A stretch of DNA of 64,000 nucleotides, taken from Pseudomonadota bacterium. GTDB taxonomy: Bacteria; Pseudomonadota; Gammaproteobacteria; JAKAQQ01. The position numbers and the translations under genes were made by a program. Every line of letters begins with the position of its first letter. Position 1 is the first letter of the stretch. The stretch lies in the NCBI GenBank assembly GCA_027365475.1, contig DAHXNI010000080.1, positions 69,490 to 133,489 of the forward strand, read 5' to 3'. Below, in pieces: positions 10,047-20,838 of the stretch. The notes beneath the pieces are model-generated. The model did no database searches. It saw nothing but the letters and a program-made list of their open reading frames with translations, and was not told the DNA's origin.

Positions 10047-11229
10047 GGAATGCTCCGGAATCCATATTGCGGCTGCGCTGCGCGGTATGCGCCTGCATGA
10101 GGCGGAGAAAACGGTCGAAAAGACCGGCAGCGTCATGCGGGCCGGGGCTCGCCTCCGGATGCCCCTGAAAACCAAGTGCAGGAACATCCATCCTTTCGAT
10201 ACCCTGGAGTGACCCGTCGAAGAGCGAGCGGTGTGTGGGCACCAGGTTGGCGGGCAGATCCGTCTCATCGACCGCAAAGCCATGGTTCTGGCTCGTGATC
10301 CAGACCCGCCCGGTTGCCAGTTCCAATACGGGGTGATTCGCACCGTGGTGGCCGAATTTCATCTTGCGGGTTCGCGCACCGGATGCAAGCGCCAGCAGTT
10401 GATGTCCAAGACAGATGCCGAAAAACGGTACCCTCCGGTCCAGCCAAGCCTGGGCCTGGGCGATGGCATCCGTCATCGCCTCGGGATCGCCCGGCCCATT
10501 CGAAAAAAGGACGCCATCGGGACGAAGCGAATCGACCAGCTGTTCAACCCTGGTTGAGGCGGGAACGGTCGTGACCCGGCACCCGGTCTCCACGAGCAAT
10601 CTCAGGATGTTGCGTTTGACCCCGAAATCGTAGACCACCACATGGAGTCCATTCCCGCGGGATCGCTTGTCCAAAGCCCGTGCTTCACCCGGAAACGAGC
10701 TCCCTTCCACCCACGGGGCTTGCTCGGCCACGCTGACATTTTCCGAGAGGTCGCATCCCGCCATGGCAGGCACTCCTCGCGCCTCCCGAATGGCACGTTC
10801 GTGATCCTGGAGCGCGTCGGGTCCGGCCAGGATGCAGCCATTCTGGGCACCCCGGTCGCGCAGATGCCGGGTGAGTTTGCGGGTATCCACTTCGGCGATA
10901 GCGACGATTCCCCGGATCTCGAGAAAACGCGCGAGCGTGATCTCGGAACGCCAACTGCTGGCCACGGGACTTGCGTTCCGCATGATGAGCCCGGCGGTCG
11001 CAGGAGCCGCGCTTTCGCAGTCGGCGGCATTCGTGCCGACATTGCCGACATGCGGTGTGGTAAGCACCACAAGCTGGCCATAGTAGGAGGGGTCGGTGAG
11101 AATTTCTTGATAACCGGTGAGCGCGGTATTGAAAACCACCTCGCCCGTACGGATCCCCGCCCGGCCAATGGAGACACCCTCGAACACGGTTCCGTCTGCC
11201 AGGGCGAGGAGTGCGGGATCAGCCATCAA
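10033..11229 (-). CDS. carA: carbamoyl-phosphate synthase small subunit (glutamine amidotransferase)
   Basis: [18 protein letters not shown]; GATase triad region ...GICLGHQLL...; 398 aa. Confidence 0.93.
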
Positions 11230-11465
11230 GTATCAATAGTTGTCGTCACCAGGTCCGCGTACAGGCCAAGACAGCTGTTTGCGGGTATCGATTGAGCTTC
11301 AAGACCAAGAGGCAACTCTAGCAAGCGCTAGGGCTGCAATTTAACACACTGACCCTCCCCGCGGCTACAGCCGGTGGAGTCCGGGTGCCAATCGCAGGGG
11401 TTTTCCGGCTGCGTGCCATCAGGGCACACATACTGCATTCTCGTCACTCGCCATCGGATCGAGAT

Positions 11466-12185
11466 TCATGCCTTCGTGGCGATTACGGCCGGCGAGTGGC
11501 CACCAACATCCATCATCTCCACTGTGGTCTCGACCGTATGGAACCCCGCCTGGCACAGCCATTCGGTGTATTCGGCGAGCGTATAGGTGCCGCCTTCCTC
11601 GGTTGCGAGCAACATATTGAGGGCAAAAAATAAGGGGAACTCCGGTCCTGTGCGCGCGTCGTTGGGTAACATGTCCACGATCACGATCCGCCCGCCTGGC
11701 CGCAACGCCGCGTGAAGCCTGCGAAACAGATCGCGCGAGGAAGCTTCGCCCTCCGAGTGCACAATGTTTCCGAGGAGAGCTAAGTCAAAGCGATCGCGGC
11801 CAAAATCCACTTCTCTAAGATTTCCCGGCAGGAACTCATAGCGGTCCCCTACCCCCTGCTGGCGCACATACTGGCGGGTCAGATCCAGCACGGCTGGGAA
11901 GCCCTGGGCGACGAACCGCGCTTCCGGATCGGCTTCGCATACCGCGATGCCCCACACGCCCGAGCCGCAGGCGACGTCAATCCCGCGCAGGCCTTTGCGA
12001 CCCGCCGTCAATCGGCGCGCCAGCGTCTGCGCCTTGTCCCGGTTCTGAATATGGAGCGAACGCACCAGTGTGGGGAAGAACTCCTCGGCCTTTTGCTGCT
12101 GATTCACCGCCATCTGAGGCCGTCCCGTGCGCACCGCATCCGCCAGTTTCCCCCACATTTCCCACAACCGGTCCGCTTCCCACAT
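11466..12185 (-). pseudogene. C-terminal fragment (239 aa) of a family-2 (COMT-like, Methyltransf_2) O-methyltransferase, cut off from its N-terminal part by an IS110 insertion
   Basis: ADAVRTGRP...; motif I IDVACGSGVWG; C-terminal DMLPNDARTG...LNMLLATEEGGTYTLAEYTEWLCQAGF typical of plant/bacterial O-MT family 2; dimerisation domain missing here but found beyond the IS at 13727-14034. Confidence 0.7.
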
Positions 12186-12189
12186 GTTG

Positions 12190-13726
12190 ACACAGGGGGC
12201 TGACGTGCCGGGACAAGGGTCAGGCTGGATGTTGAGGGTTGAGGGGAAGAGGTCTGCCTCCGGTGTATCGTGGGTTACGCCCCATGGGGCGCCTATCCAC
12301 ACGCAGAGCGCCCGAGGGCGACTCTCTGCAGCAGTCAGAGGAGGCAGACCATGAGTAAGACTATCACTTCCTTCGTAGGGTTGGACGCGCACGCCGATTC
12401 GATCGCGATCGGGGTCGCGCCGAGCGGGCGGCAGGAGCCGCACTTTGTCGGGACCGTGTCCCCGCAGTGGGGATCGCTGTCGAAGGCGCTGAGTCGGTTG
12501 GGCCAGCCCGAAGCGCTCGAGATCGTCTACGAGGCAGGTCCCTGCGGGTACACCCTGGCGCGCCAGCTCGAGGCGCACGGTTACGCTTGTCGGGTGATCG
12601 CCCCGTCGAAGGTCGCGCGCCGGCCAGGGGATCGGATCAAGACCGACCGGCGTGACGCGCTGCTGCTGGCGCGGGCCGCGCGCGCCGGGGAGCTCGTGAG
12701 CGTCACGATCCCCGATGAGCGGGATGAGGTGATTCGCGACCTCTGCCGTGCCCGGGAGGATGCCGTGCGAGCCCGGCTGAAGGCGCGCCAACAGCTCAAG
12801 GCGATGCTGCTGCGCCATGGGCGTCGCTACGGCGGCCGCTCGTCCTGGACCGAAGCGCATGAGCGCTACCTGGCCGCGGTGAGCTTTACCCAGCCCGCGC
12901 AGGACATCGCCTTCGCTGAGTATCGCAGCGCCGTGCGCGAGGCTCACGAGCGGGTCGAACGCCTCACCGAGTCGATGCGTGCGCAGCTCGAACACTGGCG
13001 CATGCGCCCGGTAGTCGAGGCGCTCATGACGCTGCGGGGCATCGACATGGTAGCGGCCATGACGGTGGTCGCCGAGATCGGGGATTTCACCCGCTTGGCG
13101 CGCCCGCGCGAGCTGATGGGGTTTCTCGGGCTGGTGCCCTCGGAATACTCCAGTGGTCCCAAGCGTACGCAGGGGGAGATCACCAAGACCGGCAACAGCC
13201 ACGTGCGGCGCGTGCGGGTGGAGGCGGCCTGGAATTATCGCTTCCCGGCGCGCCAGATCGCTTGGAAGGCACAGTTGCGCCTCGCCCAGCGCTACCGGCA
13301 TCTCTCGGCCCGCAAGCTCGCCCTCAACAAGATCTGCGTCGCCATCGCGCGTGAGCTCTCGGGCTTCATCTGGGACATCGCCCGCCAGGTCAAGCCATCG
13401 AGCACCTGAGAGGTTGTCTCATCGCCATCGAATCGGAGGTAACACACAACCCAGCATCACCCACACAACCCACACCGACAACGCACGGGTCACGCGACGC
13501 CGGAGCACCGATGAGGGGAATCCTCGGCTGGGCTATGTGGGCATCCGCGTGATGATCCCCGATAGTAGAGCGAGGCAACCCCGCGACGGACGAATGAAAT
13601 GCCGGTAACCAATCCGCGGATATGAGCCTGATCATCGTCGCCAACTTCTGCTCTCGCGTCGCGTGACCCTTGCGCTGTTGATTCCGAAAGGTTCGCAAAT
13701 TGAGGCACGAAATCCGTGAGACAGAC
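12190..13726 (+). mobile_element. IS110-family insertion sequence (approx. boundaries)
   Basis: DEDD transposase flanked by 160-nt 5' and ~317-nt 3' non-coding ends; splits the O-MT reading frame; related motif gggggct(t)gac..ggggtcaggc at both junctions. Confidence 0.65.
12348..13409 (+). CDS. IS110-family (DEDD) transposase
   Basis: MSKTITSFVGLDAHADSIAIGV... N-terminal RuvC-like DEDD domain and C-terminal ...GPKRTQGEITKTGNSHVRRVRVEAA typical of IS110/IS1111 transposases; GGAGG RBS upstream of ATG 12348. Confidence 0.85.
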   Translation, partial: TMSKTITSFVGLDAHADSIAIGVAPSGRQEPHFVGTVSPQWGSLSKALSRLGQPEALEIVYEAGPCGYTLARQLEAHGYACRVIAPSKVARRPGDRIKTDRRDALLLARAARAGELVSVTIPDERDEVIRDLCRAREDAVRARLKARQQLKAMLLRHGRRYGGRSSWTEAHERYLAAVSFTQPAQDIAFAEYRSAVREAHERVERLTESMRAQLEHWRMRPVVEALMTLRGIDMVAAMTVVAEIGDFTRLARPRELMGFLGLVPSEYSSGPKRTQGEITKTGNSHVRRVRVEAAWNYRFPARQIAWKAQLRLAQRYRHLSARKLALNKICVAIARELSGFIWDIARQVKPSST

Positions 13727-14034
13727 CTATGGGGGCTTGACAGGGGTCAGGCCATATGAGCCCAGATAGTCCGGGCTCTCGCGTACCAGATAGCGCCGGC
13801 TCAGCGGAGTCAAGCCATAGGCGTCGGCTTGTTTTTCTACCAGCCCGAGCCCCGCCAGAGCATTGAGCAGCATGGCAGCTCCCCGTAGCGAACAGCCGGT
13901 ATGTTCGGCCACGGCTTTGGCCTTCTGACTGCCTCCGGCCAGTGCGGAAAAAACCTCAACTGCAGCGCCGCGCTCGACACGCGCTCCCCGGCAAAAGAAA
14001 AACTGAGATTGAGCAGCGCATCGGTAGTATCCAT
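13727..14034 (-). pseudogene. N-terminal (dimerisation-domain) fragment of the same O-methyltransferase, with an internal frameshift at an A6/T6 run (13948-13953)
   Basis: Frame A MDTTDALLNLSFSFAGERVSSAALQ then frame B AAVEVFSALAGGSQKAKAVAEHTGCSLRGAAMLLNALAGLGLVEKQADAYGLTPLSRRYLVRESPDY = O-MT dimerisation domain pattern; one extra T would restore a single frame. Confidence 0.6.
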
Positions 14035-14224
14035 TTTTCCGCCTCTGTCAAATTCAGGGTGGGCACCCATCATGGATAGAATACCGCCGGTGAACTTAAT
14101 GAGGAGTGGCAGTGATACCGGGTCGGTTACGCCTCTTGGCGGACAGGCCATAGCCGACGAAAATCGGAGGGGTCAGCTCGCCTGCAGGAATACGAATGCC
14201 CGATGGATCCCGCAACAAACCTGC

Positions 14225-17200
14225 TCAACCCTTGTGCCGCTTCTCGATTTCCTTGCGCAAGCGTTCGATCTCACGCCGTCTGGCTTCGGGCGTACCCCAT
14301 TTCGGTGGGTCACTCTCACGCCGCTGTTCCGCCGCCCCCTGCGCCGCGCGTTCCTCAGCTTGCCGTTTTTCCCGCTCACGAACCTCGGCCTCCCGACGCG
14401 CAATGGCGCGCTCGGCAGCAATTGGAATCGTGCGCACCGGGAGGCTGGCCATCGCCAAATATTGGTCGATGGAGCCCCAGACCAGATCCCAAGCAGACTC
14501 CCCGATAAATGGAAGATTGAGCGCCTGGAACACCGGTACCCAGACATCCGTATCGGCCTGTTTGCGGCGTACCGAAAGTCTGGGATTGAACTGATACCAG
14601 CCCTGCGCGACGCGCACAAACAAGGCACGGTTGTAGGCATAGTCACGGTCGACTTCGTTGCGCGATAGCACCGAGGAAAGATACGGCCGCTTGTTGCGTT
14701 CCGGCCGGACCACATTAGCGGGCAGAGTCTCCCACGCCTCGAGAATCGTCCGCGTCTCGAAAGCGCCATGGGGCCGCCGCTGCCGATGCGTGAAGCGTGA
14801 TTTGAAAAGTGTCCACATCGTCTGGAAGACGAAATATTCCGAGAGCTGGCGGTCTATGCGCACCATCCGCTCCCCTGTGTTAACGTCGACCACGCTCGGG
14901 GCGAGCAAATCAAACAGCGCGGCGAATGGGCCGCGGGCAAATGCCGCATCGCGGAAGGCCTCGCGCATCGCCCAGTGCAGTGCGTTGAAGCCGTAGTGAT
15001 CGACCACCTCGCGATCGGCGCCACGCTCCAACAGCGCCTCGGCGAGTGGCACATTGCCGGCGGCAGCCGCGGCCATCAGCGGCGTCTGGTTCATCGGCAG
15101 GCGGTGGTCGATTCCGTACTGATCGCACTGATGCAAAATATCCTTGAAGTGCTTGGCGAAATACTGACTGTAGCTCTTGCGCCCCAAGGTGGCGCGTTGC
15201 TGCGGAAATGAGCTCGCCATGTCAAACTTTACCTCCTGTGCCAACCAGGCGGCTAACGCCGGCTCGTCGTGGCAAGTGGCATACTCGTAGAGTTGCAGCC
15301 GGTGTTTGCTGCCCGGTGCCTGTTCGCGAAACACCTTGAGCAGCAGCGCCGTGACTTTTAACTCGTCGAACACCGGCCACGGGACGGGCGTCTGCCTGAG
15401 AATGTTGCGGCGAATCGCCTCGACCTGCTCCTTTTTGCCTTGCAGTTCGAGCTTGCGCGCTTCACGCTGCCAGTCTTCGGCCGTCGATTGTTTTGCCTCG
15501 ACCGTCATCGGCCCACCCAGCGCCAGATCGAGCAGCCCAAACAGGGGATGCGAGGTATCCGATTCGATGATGTAGAGGTTCCTGGTGGCTCGCGTCAGCG
15601 CCACGTAGAACGCGTTGACAAAGAACTTATAGACCTCGAGCGACTTGTCGCTCTTGTCTTTTGCCCGTCGGTAATCAAGCGTGTCAGTCACCAGATCCCG
15701 CTTCGAGACCCCCTCTCCGATTGCGGCAAATTCAGCGCGGTGATCGGAGACGAGGCGATAGAGCACGATATTCTCGTACTCGAGCCCCTTGGCCTCGTGG
15801 ATGGAAAAAAGCAAGGGCGTCGAAAAGTACCTGCGCGCCTCAACCTTGTCCTCGTCACGCATCACCAGCACTGCGAACTGAGTGGATTGACGGATCCTGA
15901 GGTCCAGTTCTTTCTTGACGTCATCCTTGTCGGACATGAGTCCCACCTGCCCGGCTGCGCCGCCGACCGCTTTCACGAGAAAGTTGCTTTCGCGGTCGAT
16001 CGAGCCGAAGCGCCGCTGCTTGATCTTGAGGAGCTGGTTAGCGACGCGGGTCGCTTCCTGCCCGTTGCGGAAGTTAGCAGTGAGCACCTGCAGTTCCTGA
16101 CGTTCCGCCAGTTGCGGGTCGTTCCAGAAAAGAGCCTTCACCTTCGCCCAGGAGAAGAAGTTGGGATGGACAATCTGGTTAGAATCGCCACACAACAGGA
16201 AATGGCCGGGCTTCCTGAGCGTCTTCAGAACGAGCGCCAGCTGGACGGCTGTAACATCCTGCACCTCGTCGATGACGACAAAATCATAGCGGGGCGCCGC
16301 CCGACCTTGCCATTCCTGGGAAACCAGATTGAGGTCAAAAAGACCCGCTTCGCCGAGCCAGAAACGATATTTCTCGAACAGTTCGTAGAGCGCGTCCCGG
16401 CGACTTTCGGGGAAAATGGATTGGCGTACACCGAGCGCCCGATAGTCATCCCGCGATAGCACACCGTCGGCCCCGGCGGTGATCACGCCGCGGATTTCCT
16501 CAAATGCCTGGTGGCCCTCGATGCCCCTGAAAGCCTGCCGCATCCGCGCAAACCAACCGGAAAAATCACGCCAAGTGGCCTCTCGCCCTGCCGGTACCCG
16601 AAGGGATTCGACAAACTCACGGTAGGAAAGGAATACGGCCTCCTGCCCCGGATGTTCGAAACCGTTGGCGTAATAGAGATCGCGAGCGTTCTGGGCAAGG
16701 TATGCGGAAAGGGTGACGTAAAGCACTTCCCCTTCTATGTGCTTCAGCTTCTCCAGGGTCAACGCCGTTTTCCCGCTACCGGCGCTGCCTGCCACGATCA
16801 TTGGAGGTGGCTGGCGATAGATGGCCTCCTGCGCGTCATCGAAGGAAATCGGCTTGTCGAGCAGGTGAATGACGGTGCGTTCCGGATGCAGATAACGTAA
16901 TGGTTGCGCTCCCTGGAGAGCCTCGGCAACATCGCCGTCCGTAATCTTTGATTCGTCGATCACGGCCCCGCGCAAAAAGCGCGACTTATCATAGTTGTGA
17001 TTGACGATGACCTCCAGCATCAGGGCACAGACCTCATCGCCATGACGCACGAGAGAGAACAGCAACCGGTCGGACTCGTTGAGCCTGGCGCGGTAGAACT
17101 TGCCATGGCTCAGATTGGCAAGCTTTTTGACTTGCGCAACGCCAAAGTCGCCGCGAGCGATGGCGTCGATCACCTTGCGATAGGCGTCCGTGACACGGGA

Positions 17201-17233
17201 CGTATCAAGGTCGATGTACTCAAGGATCTTCAT
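14225..17233 (-). CDS. Large multidomain protein (1002 aa): N-terminal RelE/ParE-like domain, UvrD/PcrA-like SF1 helicase core, ankyrin repeats, basic/acidic C-terminal tail
   Basis: aa 45-95 GKFYRARLNESDRLLFSLVRHGDEVCALMLEVIVNHNY (RelE/ParE pattern); Walker A IVAGSAGSGKT; Walker B FVVIDEVQD; GDSNQ; FSIHEAKGLEYENIVL; FYVALTRATRNLYI; ANK: TPLMAAAAAGNVPLAEALLERGADREVVDHYGFNALHWA; ATG 17233. Confidence 0.85.
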   Translation of the reverse strand: MKILEYIDLDTSRVTDAYRKVIDAIARGDFGVAQVKKLANLSHGKFYRARLNESDRLLFSLVRHGDEVCALMLEVIVNHNYDKSRFLRGAVIDESKITDGDVAEALQGAQPLRYLHPERTVIHLLDKPISFDDAQEAIYRQPPPMIVAGSAGSGKTALTLEKLKHIEGEVLYVTLSAYLAQNARDLYYANGFEHPGQEAVFLSYREFVESLRVPAGREATWRDFSGWFARMRQAFRGIEGHQAFEEIRGVITAGADGVLSRDDYRALGVRQSIFPESRRDALYELFEKYRFWLGEAGLFDLNLVSQEWQGRAAPRYDFVVIDEVQDVTAVQLALVLKTLRKPGHFLLCGDSNQIVHPNFFSWAKVKALFWNDPQLAERQELQVLTANFRNGQEATRVANQLLKIKQRRFGSIDRESNFLVKAVGGAAGQVGLMSDKDDVKKELDLRIRQSTQFAVLVMRDEDKVEARRYFSTPLLFSIHEAKGLEYENIVLYRLVSDHRAEFAAIGEGVSKRDLVTDTLDYRRAKDKSDKSLEVYKFFVNAFYVALTRATRNLYIIESDTSHPLFGLLDLALGGPMTVEAKQSTAEDWQREARKLELQGKKEQVEAIRRNILRQTPVPWPVFDELKVTALLLKVFREQAPGSKHRLQLYEYATCHDEPALAAWLAQEVKFDMASSFPQQRATLGRKSYSQYFAKHFKDILHQCDQYGIDHRLPMNQTPLMAAAAAGNVPLAEALLERGADREVVDHYGFNALHWAMREAFRDAAFARGPFAALFDLLAPSVVDVNTGERMVRIDRQLSEYFVFQTMWTLFKSRFTHRQRRPHGAFETRTILEAWETLPANVVRPERNKRPYLSSVLSRNEVDRDYAYNRALFVRVAQGWYQFNPRLSVRRKQADTDVWVPVFQALNLPFIGESAWDLVWGSIDQYLAMASLPVRTIPIAAERAIARREAEVREREKRQAEERAAQGAAEQRRESDPPKWGTPEARRREIERLRKEIEKRHKG

Positions 17234-17543
17234 TGTAACGTCCGCCCTTCGGAACTTTATGGGCCGGTAGGTGCCCTCACCCCCGCCGCAGTGCCGACCC
17301 CATGCCAGATATCGCAAAACATCCGGATCCGAATTATCATCCCGGCGGCAGATACAGCGTCAAAGAAAGGTGGGGCAGCACAAGAGGTGAATCCGAAGTG
17401 CTCGTAGAATGATGAGGCCGCCACCTCTTCCTTCGCGTGCAGACAACGGCCCAGCCAAGCCGAGAAGAAGCTTACCAAGTCCTGCGCCCCGGCGTTCCCG
17501 ATGAATGGCAAAACTCCCCATTCGGAAGCATGGAACCGAAGGA

Positions 17544-18844: not shown

Positions 18845-19677
18845 TCGAACCCGTGCTCGGGCTGCGGATAGTTTCCGGATCGGACTGCTTCGGCATAGGC
18901 CACCACAGCTTCTGCGATCGAACGTCCCCCTGAGAGAAACGTCTCGGCGAAGCGGGGGCGCACCCCCCCACCGAGCCCGAGAATGTCGTAGAGGACCAGG
19001 ATCTGTCCATCCACGGTGGGGCCCGCCCCGATTCCGATCACCGGGACACGGGCCGCCTCGGTGATCCGGGTGGCGAGCGGCGTCGGCACACATTCGAGCA
19101 GCAGGAGGTCGGCTCCCGCCGCTTCGAGCTGCTTCGCATCCTCGACCATGCGGTTTGCTTCCGCCTCGGAGCGGCCGGCCACCCGGAACCCTCCGATTTT
19201 GTGCTGCGACTGGGGCCTCAACCCCAAGTGGGCGCAAACCGGGATCCCCTGACCCGCCAGGGCTTCGACGATCATGGCCTGAGTGGCGTTGCCTTCGAGC
19301 TTGACCATATGCGCCCCGCCTTCCCGGAGCAGTCGTCCGGCATTGAGCAGGGCGGTTTGGGGATCGCAATAACTCAAAAAAGGGAGATCGGCCACGAGCA
19401 AGGCCCGTTTGAGACCCCGGGCCACGAGTTGCGTGTGATAAACCATGTGGTCGATCGTCACAGGAATCGTGCTCGCATGGCCCTGGATGACCATGCCGAG
19501 AGAATCACCCACGAGGACAAGATCGACTCCAGAAGCATCCAGTACGGCGGCAAAGCTCGCGTCGTAGGCCGTGAGGCAGACGATTTTCTGCCGGTTTTTT
19601 TTGAGCCGTCGCAGGGTCACCAACGTGACGGGCGCGGCGTCCGCGGAAGAGGCAGGCTGCGCGTAGATATCAGTCAT
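18841..19677 (-). CDS. panB: 3-methyl-2-oxobutanoate hydroxymethyltransferase
   Basis: KIVCLTAYDASFA...VLVGDSLGMV...KLEGG PanB signatures. Confidence 0.9.
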   Translation of the reverse strand: MTDIYAQPASSADAAPVTLVTLRRLKKNRQKIVCLTAYDASFAAVLDASGVDLVLVGDSLGMVIQGHASTIPVTIDHMVYHTQLVARGLKRALLVADLPFLSYCDPQTALLNAGRLLREGGAHMVKLEGNATQAMIVEALAGQGIPVCAHLGLRPQSQHKIGGFRVAGRSEAEANRMVEDAKQLEAAGADLLLLECVPTPLATRITEAARVPVIGIGAGPTVDGQILVLYDILGLGGGVRPRFAETFLSGGRSIAEAVVAYAEAVRSGNYPQPEHGFE

Positions 19678-20366
19678 GCCGAACTCACCGGTGAGGGGGG
19701 TGCTGCGCGGGGGTTGAAGAAGTGCCGACCCGCCCGCGTACGGGCGATCTCGGCCAGAAGATTCGCGTAATCCTCTTCACGCTCAATGGGATTGATCTCG
19801 CTCGCGTTCACGATCAGGATCGGCGAGTCGTCATAGTGATGGAAAAACTGGGTATAGGCAGACACCACCTGCTCGAGATAGTCGCGGCGCATGAACTGTT
19901 CATAGGCAATCCCGCGTCGGGCGATGCGGCGCGCGAGGACATCCGTCGACGCCTGAAGGCCAATGACGAGATCCGGAACGGGAAGATCGACCGCAAGCCG
20001 CTCGTATACCTGGTCATAGAGAGCGAGTTCGTCTCGTTCGAGCGTAATCTGGGCAAAAATCCGGTCTTTCGCGAACAGGTAATCTCCGATCCTGAGCGGC
20101 TGGAACAGTTCGCCCTGTTTGAGTTCTGCGAGTGCCCGCGCCCGCTGGAAAAGAAAATAAAGCTGGGTCGGCAAGGCCGTATGGCGCGGATCGCGGTAGA
20201 AACGTTCGAGAAAGGGGTTATCGTCTGCCTGCTCAAGCAGGGGCTGGCCATTGAAACTCTCAGCCAGTTTGAGGGCGAGGGTGGTTTTGCCCACGCCGAT
20301 CGGCCCATCTATCACGATATAGCGGGCATTAGCGAGTTTGGGAGTCTGTGAATGGGATGCATTCAA
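19674..20366 (-). CDS. deoxynucleoside kinase (dAK/dGK/dCK family)
   Basis: YIVIDGPIGVGKTTL P-loop, ERF/DR..YLQ-like dNK motifs; no in-frame ATG after folK stop, TTG start proposed at 20366. Confidence 0.7.
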   Translation of the reverse strand: MNASHSQTPKLANARYIVIDGPIGVGKTTLALKLAESFNGQPLLEQADDNPFLERFYRDPRHTALPTQLYFLFQRARALAELKQGELFQPLRIGDYLFAKDRIFAQITLERDELALYDQVYERLAVDLPVPDLVIGLQASTDVLARRIARRGIAYEQFMRRDYLEQVVSAYTQFFHHYDDSPILIVNASEINPIEREEDYANLLAEIARTRAGRHFFNPRAAPPSPVSSA

Positions 20367-20838
20367 GTGGGTGGTTTCCGCATCGTGTGACCAGATCCGA
20401 GACCAGCCCGATCCCCGGCACATTGAGATCGGGGGCCAGTTCCAAGAGAGGATAAAGCACAAATGCGCGCTCTGCCAGACCCGGGTGAGGTAGGGTGAGT
20501 CGTTCGCTCTCAAACCGCCGGTCTGCATAGACCAAAAGATCGAAATCGATGGTTCGGGGCCCCCAATGGACACCCCGGGTGCGCCCCAGGGCCGCCTCGA
20601 TCCCTTGACAGGTCGCCAGCAACTCGAACGGGTCCAGCGCGGCCTGGATCTCAATCACGGCGTTCCAGTAATCCGGCTGCGCGGAACCATCCATCGGCGG
20701 CGTGCGATAGAGCGAGGAGCGACGCCTCAAGAGGATCCCGGGTACATCTGCCACGATCTCGACCGCTCGCCTGATCTGTTCCGGCGGGTCCTTGAGATTG
20801 CTGCCGAGGCCGAGATAGATGCCCGATACGGGGAGCAT
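20329..20838 (-). CDS. folK: 2-amino-4-hydroxy-6-hydroxymethyldihydropteridine pyrophosphokinase (HPPK)
   Basis: IYLGLGSNL...TIDFDLL...YPL HPPK motifs; pcnB-folK order as in E. coli. Confidence 0.88.
   Translation of the reverse strand: MLPVSGIYLGLGSNLKDPPEQIRRAVEIVADVPGILLRRRSSLYRTPPMDGSAQPDYWNAVIEIQAALDPFELLATCQGIEAALGRTRGVHWGPRTIDFDLLVYADRRFESERLTLPHPGLAERAFVLYPLLELAPDLNVPGIGLVSDLVTRCGNHPLECIPFTDSQTR

Follow-up and report, generated by a model that had tools for sequence, protein, structure and literature searches.

The window analysed here, a stretch of 64,000 nucleotides from a gammaproteobacterium of the lineage JAKAQQ01, carries on its minus strand a real gene of 1002 codons (Table 1), which the initial annotation had delimited correctly while naming no strand. 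The longest in-frame version of the open reading frame reaches a TTG at 17317; the ATG at 17233 is supported as the start because all homologues begin MKILEY or MRILEY. The database protein P0001 is 100% identical to the product, and more than 120 full-length homologues share 74–87% identity with it. A plus-strand frame of 255 codons (13901–14668) was discarded as an artefact that “recurs” only as the antisense of the gene's conserved 3′ end. The gap between the gene and panD is indeed a leader of the length initially given. It holds one weak sigma-70-like site (17363–17336; 1 site in the promoter scan versus 1.1 expected) and an 84-codon ORF (17511–17257) that has no Pfam hit and is not conserved, and it bears no similarity to the upstream regions of 84 other loci. 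Downstream lies the disrupted methyltransferase already noticed in the letters, an O-methyltransferase gene split by an IS110 transposase, and then carA/carB. The run pcnB-dNK-panB-panC-panD is conserved in relatives; in none of the relatives compared does the gene or carA follow panD, the panD relatives from metagenomes being mostly ∼60% identical. The gene's GC content is in line with that of its flanks.

Table 1. Features of the gene and its leader, in window coordinates (residues refer to the 1002-aa product).
Feature	Position	Strand	Basis or detail
Whole CDS, 1002 aa + stop	14225..17233	minus	ATG at 17233, stop 14225-14227; ORF list and translation
Upstream intergenic leader, 310 nt	17234..17543	minus	panD stop to ATG
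RelE/YoeB-fold domain, residues 1-95 (predicted)	16949..17233	minus	strands 2-6, 36-38, 46-50, 56-64, 67-76; helix 12-26
Conserved residues of the N-terminal domain			K37, R48, K/R50, R56, E74, H79, Y81
Linker, residues 96-135	16829..16948	minus	less conserved; conservation profile, alignment
UvrD/PcrA-type SF1A helicase core, residues 136-570	15524..16828	minus	motifs I, II, III, IV, V, VI intact
Helical bridge, residues 571-654	15272..15523	minus	conserved W588, L595, G599, E602-Q603-A604, I607; C-terminal AF2 model pLDDT 95
Ankyrin-repeat domain, ~residues 655-780	14894..15271	minus	canonical repeats 714-779
C-terminal α/β domain, residues 781-925	14459..14893	minus	modelled at pLDDT >90; conserved in diverse family set
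Arg/Glu/Ala-rich helical tail, residues 926-1002	14228..14458	minus	composition; two long helices in model

The product is a protein in which a RelE/YoeB-type toxin fold is followed by a UvrD-like SF1 helicase, ankyrin repeats and a C-terminal domain without an assigned family. As a structural reading, the domain order proposed from the sequence was correct. The likeness of the N-terminus to RelE/ParE, which had been suggested by eye, holds at the level of the fold only. The AlphaFold2 model of residues 1–139 (pLDDT 84, pTM 0.79) predicts a compact RelE-type α/β fold, an N-terminal strand and helical segment set on a three- to four-stranded antiparallel sheet, with one N-terminal helix versus the two of the RelE, YoeB, YafQ and HigB toxins. 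When the N-domain model was compared with the PDB using Foldseek, the top 20 matches were all RelE-superfamily toxins of the YoeB/RelE/YafQ type, 19 of them at a probability of 0.8–1.0 and the remaining one at 0.54. RNase-type toxins ranked above ParE in both fold searches, and the domain is unlike an ordinary helicase N-domain. Sequence profiles returned nothing comparable: 42 N-domain sequences gave no match to the Pfam RelE/ParE families (PF05016, PF06769 and others) even at E ≤ 10, an HMM search of the PDB was negative, and hhalign found nothing against a single YoeB sequence; a YoeB profile built from 120 sequences likewise gave no significant match (P 0.076, 19 columns), this profile being shallow because the YoeB matches are all >82% identical. 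A word-indexed search with the N-domain alone recovered only contig-end fragments of the same family and no new architectures.

Conservation within the domain may point to the RNase branch of the toxin superfamily. Across 66 family members of 34–87% identity, K37 is kept in 100%, R48 in 95%, R56 in 98%, E74 in 96%, H79 in 98% and Y81 in 96%, and position 50 is K or R. The catalytic residues of the RNase branch are K52, K54, R61, R81 and Y87 in RelE and E46, R65, H83 and Y84 in YoeB. The non-significant hhalign register places R56 on the catalytic R65 of YoeB, and a match made by hand pairs Y47-R48-x-K/R50-L with Y51-K52-x-K54-L of RelE; mapped in these two ways, R48, K/R50, R56, E74, H79 and Y81 fall in the strands and the C-terminal turn equivalent to those carrying the RNase-branch set. 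The domain appears to keep a basic/His/Tyr residue set resembling that of ribosome-dependent mRNA endonucleases, and may be a nuclease.

The linker ends in the conserved stretch LDKxxSFDDxQ right before Walker A, with Q135 invariant. That a complete SF1A helicase core follows, as initially proposed, is borne out by its motifs (Walker A, 149 GSAGSGKT; motif II, 322 DEVQD; motif III, 349 GDSNQ; motif IV, 387 NFRN; motif V, 480 EAKGLE; motif VI, 547 TRA), among which Walker A and DExQD show no variation in the family alignment, and by Pfam scores for UvrD-helicase, AAA_19 and UvrD_C that all exceed their gathering cut-offs (32.3 vs 23, 34.6 vs 25.1 and 28.6 vs 25.6). The best single Pfam E-value, 7e-9, belongs to the SF1 RNA-helicase family Viral_helicase1. 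A phmmer search of the PDB with the helicase region alone returned nothing; a 26-sequence profile was needed, and this matched PcrA, FBH1, UvrD, Rep and AddA at 1e-7 to 1e-4. The protein is not an orthologue of any of the named housekeeping helicases UvrD, Rep, PcrA, RecB, AddA and HelD, the NCBIfam equivalogs scoring 14–31 bits versus cut-offs of 419–1144. Judged from sequence, the core is complete but divergent and of the UvrD/PcrA type. Because it resembles DNA helicases of that type, the helicase module lends no support to a link with RNA or the ribosome.

Beyond the bridge, tandem 33-residue helix-turn-helix repeats that match Ank profiles confirm the ankyrin repeats placed after the helicase core. 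The Arg/Glu-rich tail of ∼120 residues that was said to follow them is in part something else. A charged tail exists (R 21%, E 18%), but it is 77 aa long, and residues 781–925 form a folded α/β domain. This domain carries the motif RxKRxYxSxxLxxNE…YNRxLFxRxxxGxYxLNP, in which R874, G878 and Y880 are invariant or nearly so, and its profile has no significant match in Pfam or the PDB; it might be winged-helix-like. The tail is poorly conserved, with 19–47% occupancy in the diverse alignment; it is often missing or replaced in relatives, in some of them by DUF1186 and a SEC-C motif.

The gene belongs to a very large family and is no singular oddity. At E ≤ 1e-30, 551 representatives of 50%-identity clusters match, and at least 262 species genomes carry a member. 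The family is also horizontally mobile. Of the 142 plasmids with a member, 101 belong to Shigella, and the remainder include plasmids of Methylosinus (69% identity), Thermus and Deinococcus; the one Shigella plasmid inspected among the 101, pSLG231, carries virK, ospG and ipaH together with the family gene. The virulence plasmid of Shigella is among the carriers, as are islands of E. coli ST131. Among 5426 complete E. coli genomes, 115 (∼2%) have the gene. The four chromosomal loci inspected there are islands of the AlpA / Gp2-family / YeeP / Ag43 type, with the gene directly after AlpA / Gp2-family backbone genes, and some E. coli copies are pseudogenes or remnants. A few Paraburkholderia species have the gene, and no family member was found in phage records. 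The gene tree follows taxonomy only in part: Paraburkholderia falls into two groups, the P. franconis protein is 82% identical to that of Accumulibacter, and within clades such as Accumulibacter the gene is passed on stably. Identity among Betaproteobacteria and Gammaproteobacteria is 70–87%, unusually high for a defence gene.

Widespread as the family is, the core-genome synteny of a housekeeping orthologue was not found. No neighbour is shared across 80 genome loci, even within Accumulibacter or Paraburkholderia, and core synteny was rejected because panD, carA and the O-methyltransferase gene, which flank the gene in the window, are beside it at none of the 80. The description as a lone gene stands for these loci. 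ORF clustering, comparison of flanking DNA (which is not conserved among loci) and a Pfam/PADLOC census of 142 neighbours disclosed no conserved partner or antitoxin; across the 80 or more loci compared, no upstream or downstream ORF that could be an adjacent antitoxin gene is conserved. The 142 genes immediately next to family members represent 149 Pfam families, none seen more than three times, and most of them are ordinary genes of metabolism or regulation. Housekeeping genes surround several loci, one of which has a start/stop overlap with metH, and at most of the 80 chromosomal loci there is no mobile-element backbone near the gene. Within ±5 kb, toxin–antitoxin (TA), restriction–modification (RM) or abortive-infection (Abi) genes occur in seven of nine Pfam-annotated loci; two sampled loci had no TA or defence genes nearby.

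No characterised protein with this combination of domains was known at first reading; one part of the combination, the fusion, has a described counterpart. Literature searches (with the E. coli accession, and with ankyrin, UvrD and defence as terms) returned no description of this ankyrin-bearing RelE-fold/helicase family, and PADLOC and NCBIfam, queried with the window protein and with its homologues from E. coli and Thermus, yielded generic UvrD-type hits and no specific defence family. In ArmD, a component of ARMADA type II (E. coli NCTC 12900, WP_000218177.1), a RelE-like domain is joined to a UvrD-type helicase, and a Walker A residue is needed for defence (bioRxiv 10.1101/2025.09.15.676423). 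Compared by its published description, ArmD is the closest described architecture: it likewise has the RelE-like domain at the N-terminus of a UvrD-family helicase, and its defence or conflict setting is one that the window gene would share. The Walker A lysine is K266 in ArmD and K155 here. Unlike the window gene, ArmD works only with three partners, a Snf2-type helicase, a PglX-like methyltransferase and a YprA-like helicase; ArmA (Snf2/BrxHII-like), ArmB (PglX-like) and ArmC (YprA-like) are neither beside the window gene nor recurrent in the 142-neighbour census. The published account of ArmD mentions neither ankyrin repeats nor a C-terminal domain, both of which the window protein has.

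Other systems share single elements. In type II Gabija the GajB helicase is paired with the MazF-like GajC (PMC13069673), again a UvrD-family helicase coupled to an effector of TA-type RNase fold, and GajB models are the best PADLOC hits. These matches, however, are partial and, at ≤ 43 bits, weak; neither GajA nor GajC is encoded alongside, no partner recurs among the neighbours, and the Gabija effector is separate and MazF-like whereas that of the window protein is fused to the helicase and RelE-like. CnuH of CoCoNuT types II and III-A, another SF1 helicase, contains within it a RelE/colicin-D-like “RTL” domain, whose predicted target is RNA or translation (PMC11090510). The window protein also is an SF1 helicase carrying a RelE-like domain, but its helicase is of the UvrD type, and it has neither the UPF1-like helicase nor the OB fold and coiled coils of CnuH; moreover, CnuH is strictly linked to the McrBC-type CnuB/CnuC, and McrB and McrC are both missing from the neighbours of the window family. 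In Cami1, a CARF-RelE ancillary effector of type III CRISPR systems (PDB 8phb), the sensor is a cyclic-oligoadenylate-binding CARF domain and not a helicase, and the window gene lacks a CRISPR context. The type II TA toxins RelE, YoeB, YafQ and HigB, finally, are proteins of ∼90 aa with Pfam/HMM membership and an adjacent antitoxin gene; here the RelE-like part has neither and is one domain of a 1002-aa protein.

Taken together, the protein most likely acts in genetic conflict and not in housekeeping. The initial proposal of an immunity or Abi factor, or of a toxin–helicase fusion, gains from the occurrence on plasmids and integrative islands and from the TA, RM and Abi genes near most annotated loci, and loses from the want of a specific PADLOC family and from the ordinary neighbours. 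The best reading, which we hold with middling confidence, is that of a single-protein, helicase-controlled, translation-targeting RNase for conflict or defence. It rests on the folds together with intact ATPase motifs and conserved residues in the N-domain, on the lack of a partner gene and on the patchy plasmid- and island-borne distribution. By this reading, the helicase module would be an active UvrD/PcrA-type SF1 ATPase or translocase, as predicted from its intact motifs, serving together with the ankyrin and C-terminal modules as sensor and regulator. Foreign or aberrant nucleic acid, or a protein, could be the trigger; ATP-driven rearrangement might then expose the RelE-like domain, which would cut mRNA on translating ribosomes and so arrest translation, the remainder of the polypeptide playing the antitoxin's part. 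Biologically, the protein might serve to defend against phages or plasmids, or mobile elements might use it in competing with one another. For the family, RNase activity, ribosome dependence, a trigger of the kind just named and a defence phenotype would all be implied. Several observations count against this reading: RelE similarity confined to the fold, with no sequence-profile match for a nuclease N-domain; a residue mapping made from an alignment register and by hand; no defence-model match beyond generic UvrD, mostly ordinary neighbours and the two loci without TA or defence genes; and the high conservation, the GC content equal to that of the flanks, the absence from phage genomes and the DNA-type helicase.

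Some of the same observations would fit a DNA helicase acting in repair, in recombination or in the processing of replication forks, whose RelE-like domain has no catalytic role and binds nucleic acid or protein, and whose ankyrin and C-terminal domains recruit partners in a manner likened to FBH1 or to UvrD with accessory domains. The profile matches to PcrA, FBH1, UvrD, Rep and AddA, the missing RelE signal at profile level, the absent antitoxin, the conservation and the GC content all speak for it. We nevertheless consider it unlikely, because R48, K/R50, R56, H79 and Y81 appear to sit at RNase-type catalytic positions, RNase-type toxins outrank ParE as fold neighbours, and a repair helicase would not typically show a patchy occurrence on plasmids and islands with some copies decayed. 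A rather doubtful alternative is that the gene serves the mobile elements themselves, through maintenance (addiction), establishment after transfer or the countering of host defences and competitors, and does not protect the host from phages. The many copies on conjugative or mobilizable plasmids suggest as much, as do the position behind backbone genes in the E. coli islands, the repA and IS adjoining the Thermus plasmid copy and the T4SS genes near that of Methylosinus; at odds with it are the chromosomal loci lacking a mobile-element backbone, the window copy itself, set between panD and the disrupted O-methyltransferase gene with carA beyond, and the stable inheritance within clades.

A cellular role in RNA surveillance or ribosome rescue is improbable for the protein; its SF1 motor would then move on mRNA to stalled ribosomes, and the RelE-like domain would free these by cutting the A-site codon, in parallel to the eukaryotic UPF1 helicase and the endonuclease it works with. 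Presence in a few Paraburkholderia species and in 2% of E. coli genomes, plasmid and island copies of which some are pseudogenes, no synteny with translation or RNA-decay genes and motifs of UvrD and not UPF1 type weigh against the RelE fold with its catalytic-like residues, the Viral_helicase1 E-value, the strong purifying selection along the entire protein, the loci among housekeeping genes and the SEC-C zinc motif in place of some tails. The SEC-C motif binds ribosomes in SecA. We would grant similarly little credence to a bolder version, a self-contained translation-targeting surveillance machine in which an SF1 motor on RNA or a ribosome-bound transcript, by a UPF1-like logic, delivers a RelE-type nuclease into the A site with no antitoxin involved, and which would be a single-gene immunity or exclusion system of the Shigella virulence plasmid and ST131 islands.

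If the reading as a helicase-controlled RNase is true, our study has importance in suggesting that a single, widespread gene can place a ribosome-dependent RNase under an ATP-driven sensor of nucleic acids. Helicases paired with TA-toxin folds, recently recognised in ArmD, type II Gabija and CoCoNuT, would then include an autonomous protein, which would show how a RelE toxin can be restrained in the absence of an antitoxin. The virulence plasmid of Shigella and E. coli ST131 EC958 (WP_000686652.1) offer homologues in tractable hosts, and these, with clear targets for substitution (K155, D322/E323, R56, H79 and Y81), make the proposal accessible to experiment. A new C-terminal domain family would be defined, and a conserved gene of ∼950 aa, now annotated as “hypothetical” or “ankyrin repeat protein”, on a major plasmid of a human pathogen would be assigned a function.

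The gene under study encodes a protein that joins a RelE/YoeB fold, in which a set of basic, His and Tyr residues is conserved, to an SF1A ATPase with intact motifs, to ankyrin repeats and to a conserved domain of a new type. It is a genuine gene, and the initial annotation had parsed it correctly. Its ATG is favoured as start over the TTG of a longer version extending to 17317, because all homologues begin at MKILEY or MRILEY. A database protein with exactly this sequence is annotated by NCBI as 'MAG: AAA family ATPase [Gammaproteobacteria bacterium]'.

Features of the window and of two homologous loci
Feature	Position	Strand	Remarks
Gene under study	14225-17233	-	one uninterrupted ORF; ATG 17233, stop 14225-14227; 1002 aa
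Helicase motifs (residues)	149, 322, 349, 387, 480, 547		Walker A GSAGSGKT, II DEVQD, III GDSNQ, IV NFRN, V EAKGLE, VI TRA
TTG-initiated ORF in 310-nt leader	17257-17511	-	84 codons; fills most of leader; ends 24 nt before ATG
Deoxynucleoside-kinase-family gene	19674-20654	-	between pcnB and panB; Pfam dNK, 9e-32
Class-I O-methyltransferase, split gene	11466-14151	-	fragments either side of IS110/IS116/IS902-family transposase
O-methyltransferase dimerisation-domain fragment	13727-13912	-
O-methyltransferase catalytic domain	11466-12269	-
IS110/IS116/IS902-family transposase	12270-13409	+	interrupts O-methyltransferase
Homologue, Shigella dysenteriae pSLG231	L093 6938-9862
Homologue, E. coli ST131 EC958	L095 12049-14898		41% identity

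The family is very large, uncharacterised and mobile, and no description of it was found in the literature searched. More than 120 full-length relatives at 74-87% identity were listed from Betaproteobacteria and Gammaproteobacteria, and when 50%-identity representatives were searched exhaustively with HMMER, 551 clusters matched at E ≤ 1e-30. About 80 of the matching representatives can be aligned over residues 1 to ~900, at 35-57% identity, and from them a 66-sequence alignment was drawn. The gene tree matches taxonomy only partly, with Paraburkholderia split and the P. franconis copy 82% identical to that of Accumulibacter phosphatis.

Residues 1-95 have no Pfam match. Modelled with AlphaFold2 from a 42-sequence alignment, residues 1-139 (pLDDT 84, pTM 0.79) adopt the elements β2-6, α12-26, β36-38, β46-50, β56-64 and β67-76, and Foldseek, an independent method, placed YoeB/RelE/YafQ-type toxins in its top 20 positions, nearly all at probability 0.8-1.0, with TM-scores (target) of 0.55-0.68 and marginal E-values (best 2e-3). 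The RelE/ParE-like N-terminus proposed initially is thus confirmed at the level of the fold; the relationship is invisible to profile methods, so the likeness is one of structure and does not amount to demonstrated homology in sequence. In the 66-sequence alignment this domain is as conserved as the helicase and retains the polar residues K37 (100%), R48 (95%), R56 (98%), E74 (96%), H79 (98%) and Y81 (96%), with K or R at position 50. The sole local hhalign alignment obtained pairs residues 44-62 with YoeB 53-71 and places R56 on the catalytic R65. Aligned by hand, Y47-R48-A-K/R50-L resembles RelE Y51-K52-I-K54-L, and H79 and Y81 follow the last strand, where YoeB carries H83/Y84 and RelE R81/Y87. 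We infer that a functional RNase site would show such a pattern.

All SF1A motifs are found in residues 136-570, and the Pfam models UvrD-helicase, AAA_19 and UvrD_C all exceed their cut-offs, in agreement with the complete helicase core recognised initially. In the PDB, matches of the family profile to PcrA, FBH1, UvrD, Rep and AddA were no stronger than 1e-7 to 1e-4, and NCBIfam equivalogs scored far under their cut-offs; the helicase is thus of a divergent UvrD type and no orthologue of a named one. As no Walker A or DExQD residue varies across the 66 sequences, the ATPase is expected to be active. The structure model of residues 571-1002 (pLDDT 95.4) comprises a helical bridge, the ankyrin repeats already noticed in the sequence, an α/β domain at ~781-925 and, as the R/E/A-rich tail (926-1002), a pair of long helices. 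An R/E-rich tail had been proposed and does exist (R 21%, E 18%), but it measures 77 aa and not ~120, a folded domain having been merged with it. That α/β domain has no sequence relatives in Pfam or PDB; its motif, RxKRxYxSxxLxxNE…YNRxLFxRxxxGxYxLNP, we take by eye to resemble a winged-helix wing. The tail is weakly kept (occupancy 19-47% in the 66-sequence alignment); some family members, such as P0249 (1394 aa) and P0258 (1370 aa), carry DUF1186 and a SEC-C zinc-binding motif in its place, and others have longer ankyrin arrays, P0383 with seven or more repeats. Within the family, the C-terminus is the end that varies and can be exchanged.

The gene has no partner, and its distribution is accessory and mobile, with TA and defence genes nearby. 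With one genome scanned per species, a pattern search turned up close relatives in 262 species; 80 loci were kept. None of the 80 has panD, carA or the O-methyltransferase beside the gene. Clustering of flanking ORFs revealed no family common to more than eight loci, and the recurrent ones are generic paralogues (GGDEF, ABC ATPase, MetH, histidine kinase). Accumulibacter (13 loci) shows only three small synteny groups, the eight Paraburkholderia and Caballeronia contexts all differ, and neither upstream nor downstream DNA is conserved among loci, the window leader matching nothing. The 142 immediate neighbours fall into 149 Pfam families, the commonest (IS110 transposase domains, NrtR-type NUDIX regulator domains, PAS_3) occurring three times each, and PADLOC hits among them are scattered. 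The gene is therefore without a conserved partner and without an antitoxin. TA, RM or Abi genes lie within ~5 kb at seven of nine Pfam-annotated loci and are absent from two; nearby genes include HipBA, HigBA-like, MNT, Zeta, Fic, type III RM, VapBC, Phd, TacAT, AbiEii, YoeB-YefM and MazEF. By rough estimate, a random 10-kb stretch of such genomes would hold a TA module less than about one quarter of the time, and against that estimate the genes near the family look enriched in such modules.

At Rhodocyclaceae-type loci (L082 6330-10001, L103 4357-8022, with L007 and L016) the gene abuts or overlaps the metH 3' end (a shared base, or 22 nt); a MazEF module lies downstream in one metH-adjoining locus and is missing in the other. 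The site is conserved but varies locally. At locus L091 a 1852-aa protein (11139-16697) with only faint phage-integrase hits is encoded directly downstream of the homologue, in an island that also holds type III RM, Zeta toxin, Fic and RhuM genes.

By tblastn the family occurs on 142 plasmids, carriers including Methylosinus trichosporium pOB3b2 (69% identity), Deinococcus, Polymorphobacter and Thermus aquaticus pTA78; no phage genome has a member. Shigella plasmids with a homologue number 101 (41% identity over residues 1-903). On the one inspected, pSLG231, which carries ospG and ipaH, the gene has IS fragments on its flanks and adjoins a deacetylase-capU-virK-acyltransferase cluster. Among complete E. 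coli genomes 115 of 5426 are positive, ST131 EC958 included, and the four chromosomal copies inspected lie within AlpA / inovirus-Gp2-family / YfjI-YfjJ / YeeP / Ag43-type integrative islands; among the E. coli copies, several are broken by internal stops or reduced to 3' remnants. The only annotations given to the Shigella and E. coli homologues are 'ankyrin repeat protein', 'UvrD-helicase domain-containing protein' and 'hypothetical protein'. In the E. coli islands a ~180-aa gene precedes the homologue by about 36-90 nt (L097 8402-8965 and L098 8401-8964, annotated 'inovirus-type Gp2 / UCP030791 family'; L095 11422-11955, 'hypothetical protein'); it has no PADLOC match and could belong to the backbone of the island or be a partner peculiar to the lineage.

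In the window, pcnB, the dNK-like gene, panB, panC and panD, all on the minus strand, precede the gene across the 310-nt gap, and the IS-disrupted O-methyltransferase, carA and carB (minus strand) follow, the order described initially; GC of the gene (0.58-0.61) is that of its flanks. The dNK gene also lies between pcnB and panB in 16 related metagenome loci (L113, L115, L130, L139 and others), and pcnB-dNK-panB-panC-panD is therefore a conserved cluster in the lineage; in distant relatives of the window organism that keep the pcnB-to-panD run, the gene under study never follows panD. The leader ORF has no Pfam match and the leader is kept in no other locus, and it is therefore unlikely to be an antitoxin. 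Two further ORFs were rejected. One, of 611 codons on the minus strand, spans the IS and is an antisense artefact of the transposase, whose GC content is high (0.71). The other (255 codons, 13901-14668, plus strand) runs antisense to the helicase gene at its 3' end, lacks a Pfam hit and is most likely no gene; that it 'recurs' in many loci is due solely to conservation of the sense gene.

The pairing of a helicase with a toxin fold is already known, and the family is not categorically new. ArmD, indispensable to the validated four-gene system ARMADA type II (bioRxiv 10.1101/2025.09.15.676423), shares by its published description the two-domain logic of RelE-like domain and UvrD-family helicase; unlike it, the family lacks partner genes and has additional ankyrin and C-terminal domains, of which the paper (10.1101/2025.09.15.676423) makes no mention in ArmD. 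Comparable designs are type II Gabija, with GajB and a MazF-like protein (PMC13069673), CoCoNuT CnuH, a UPF1-like helicase with RelE-like insert (PMC11090510), and Cami1, whose CARF domain plays an antitoxin-like part. The family would resemble them in coupling a motor or sensor to a TA-type RNase fold; by their defining features, it is outside ARMADA, Gabija, CoCoNuT and Cami1.

With moderate confidence we understand the protein as an autonomous sensor-effector whose RelE-fold domain is predicted to cleave mRNA on ribosomes. The motor, ankyrin and C-terminal modules would sense a nucleic-acid or protein cue and control the N-terminal domain, with the remaining polypeptide in the place of the absent antitoxin, a part played in Cami1 by the CARF domain. 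Once freed, the N-terminal domain would cut mRNA on ribosomes and translation would stop, with abortive infection, exclusion or growth arrest as the outcome. A defence role has against it that no profile-level nuclease match exists, that many immediate neighbours are ordinary genes, that conservation is unusually high for a defence gene and that none of the catalogued defence families is matched. Of the rival readings, a non-catalytic RelE-fold module on a DNA-repair-type helicase appears unlikely, a function serving the carrier element itself is less probable still, and a cellular ribosome-rescue or RNA-surveillance factor is the least probable. The sensor-effector reading concerns a family that is widespread, found in important pathogens, mechanistically suggestive and directly testable.
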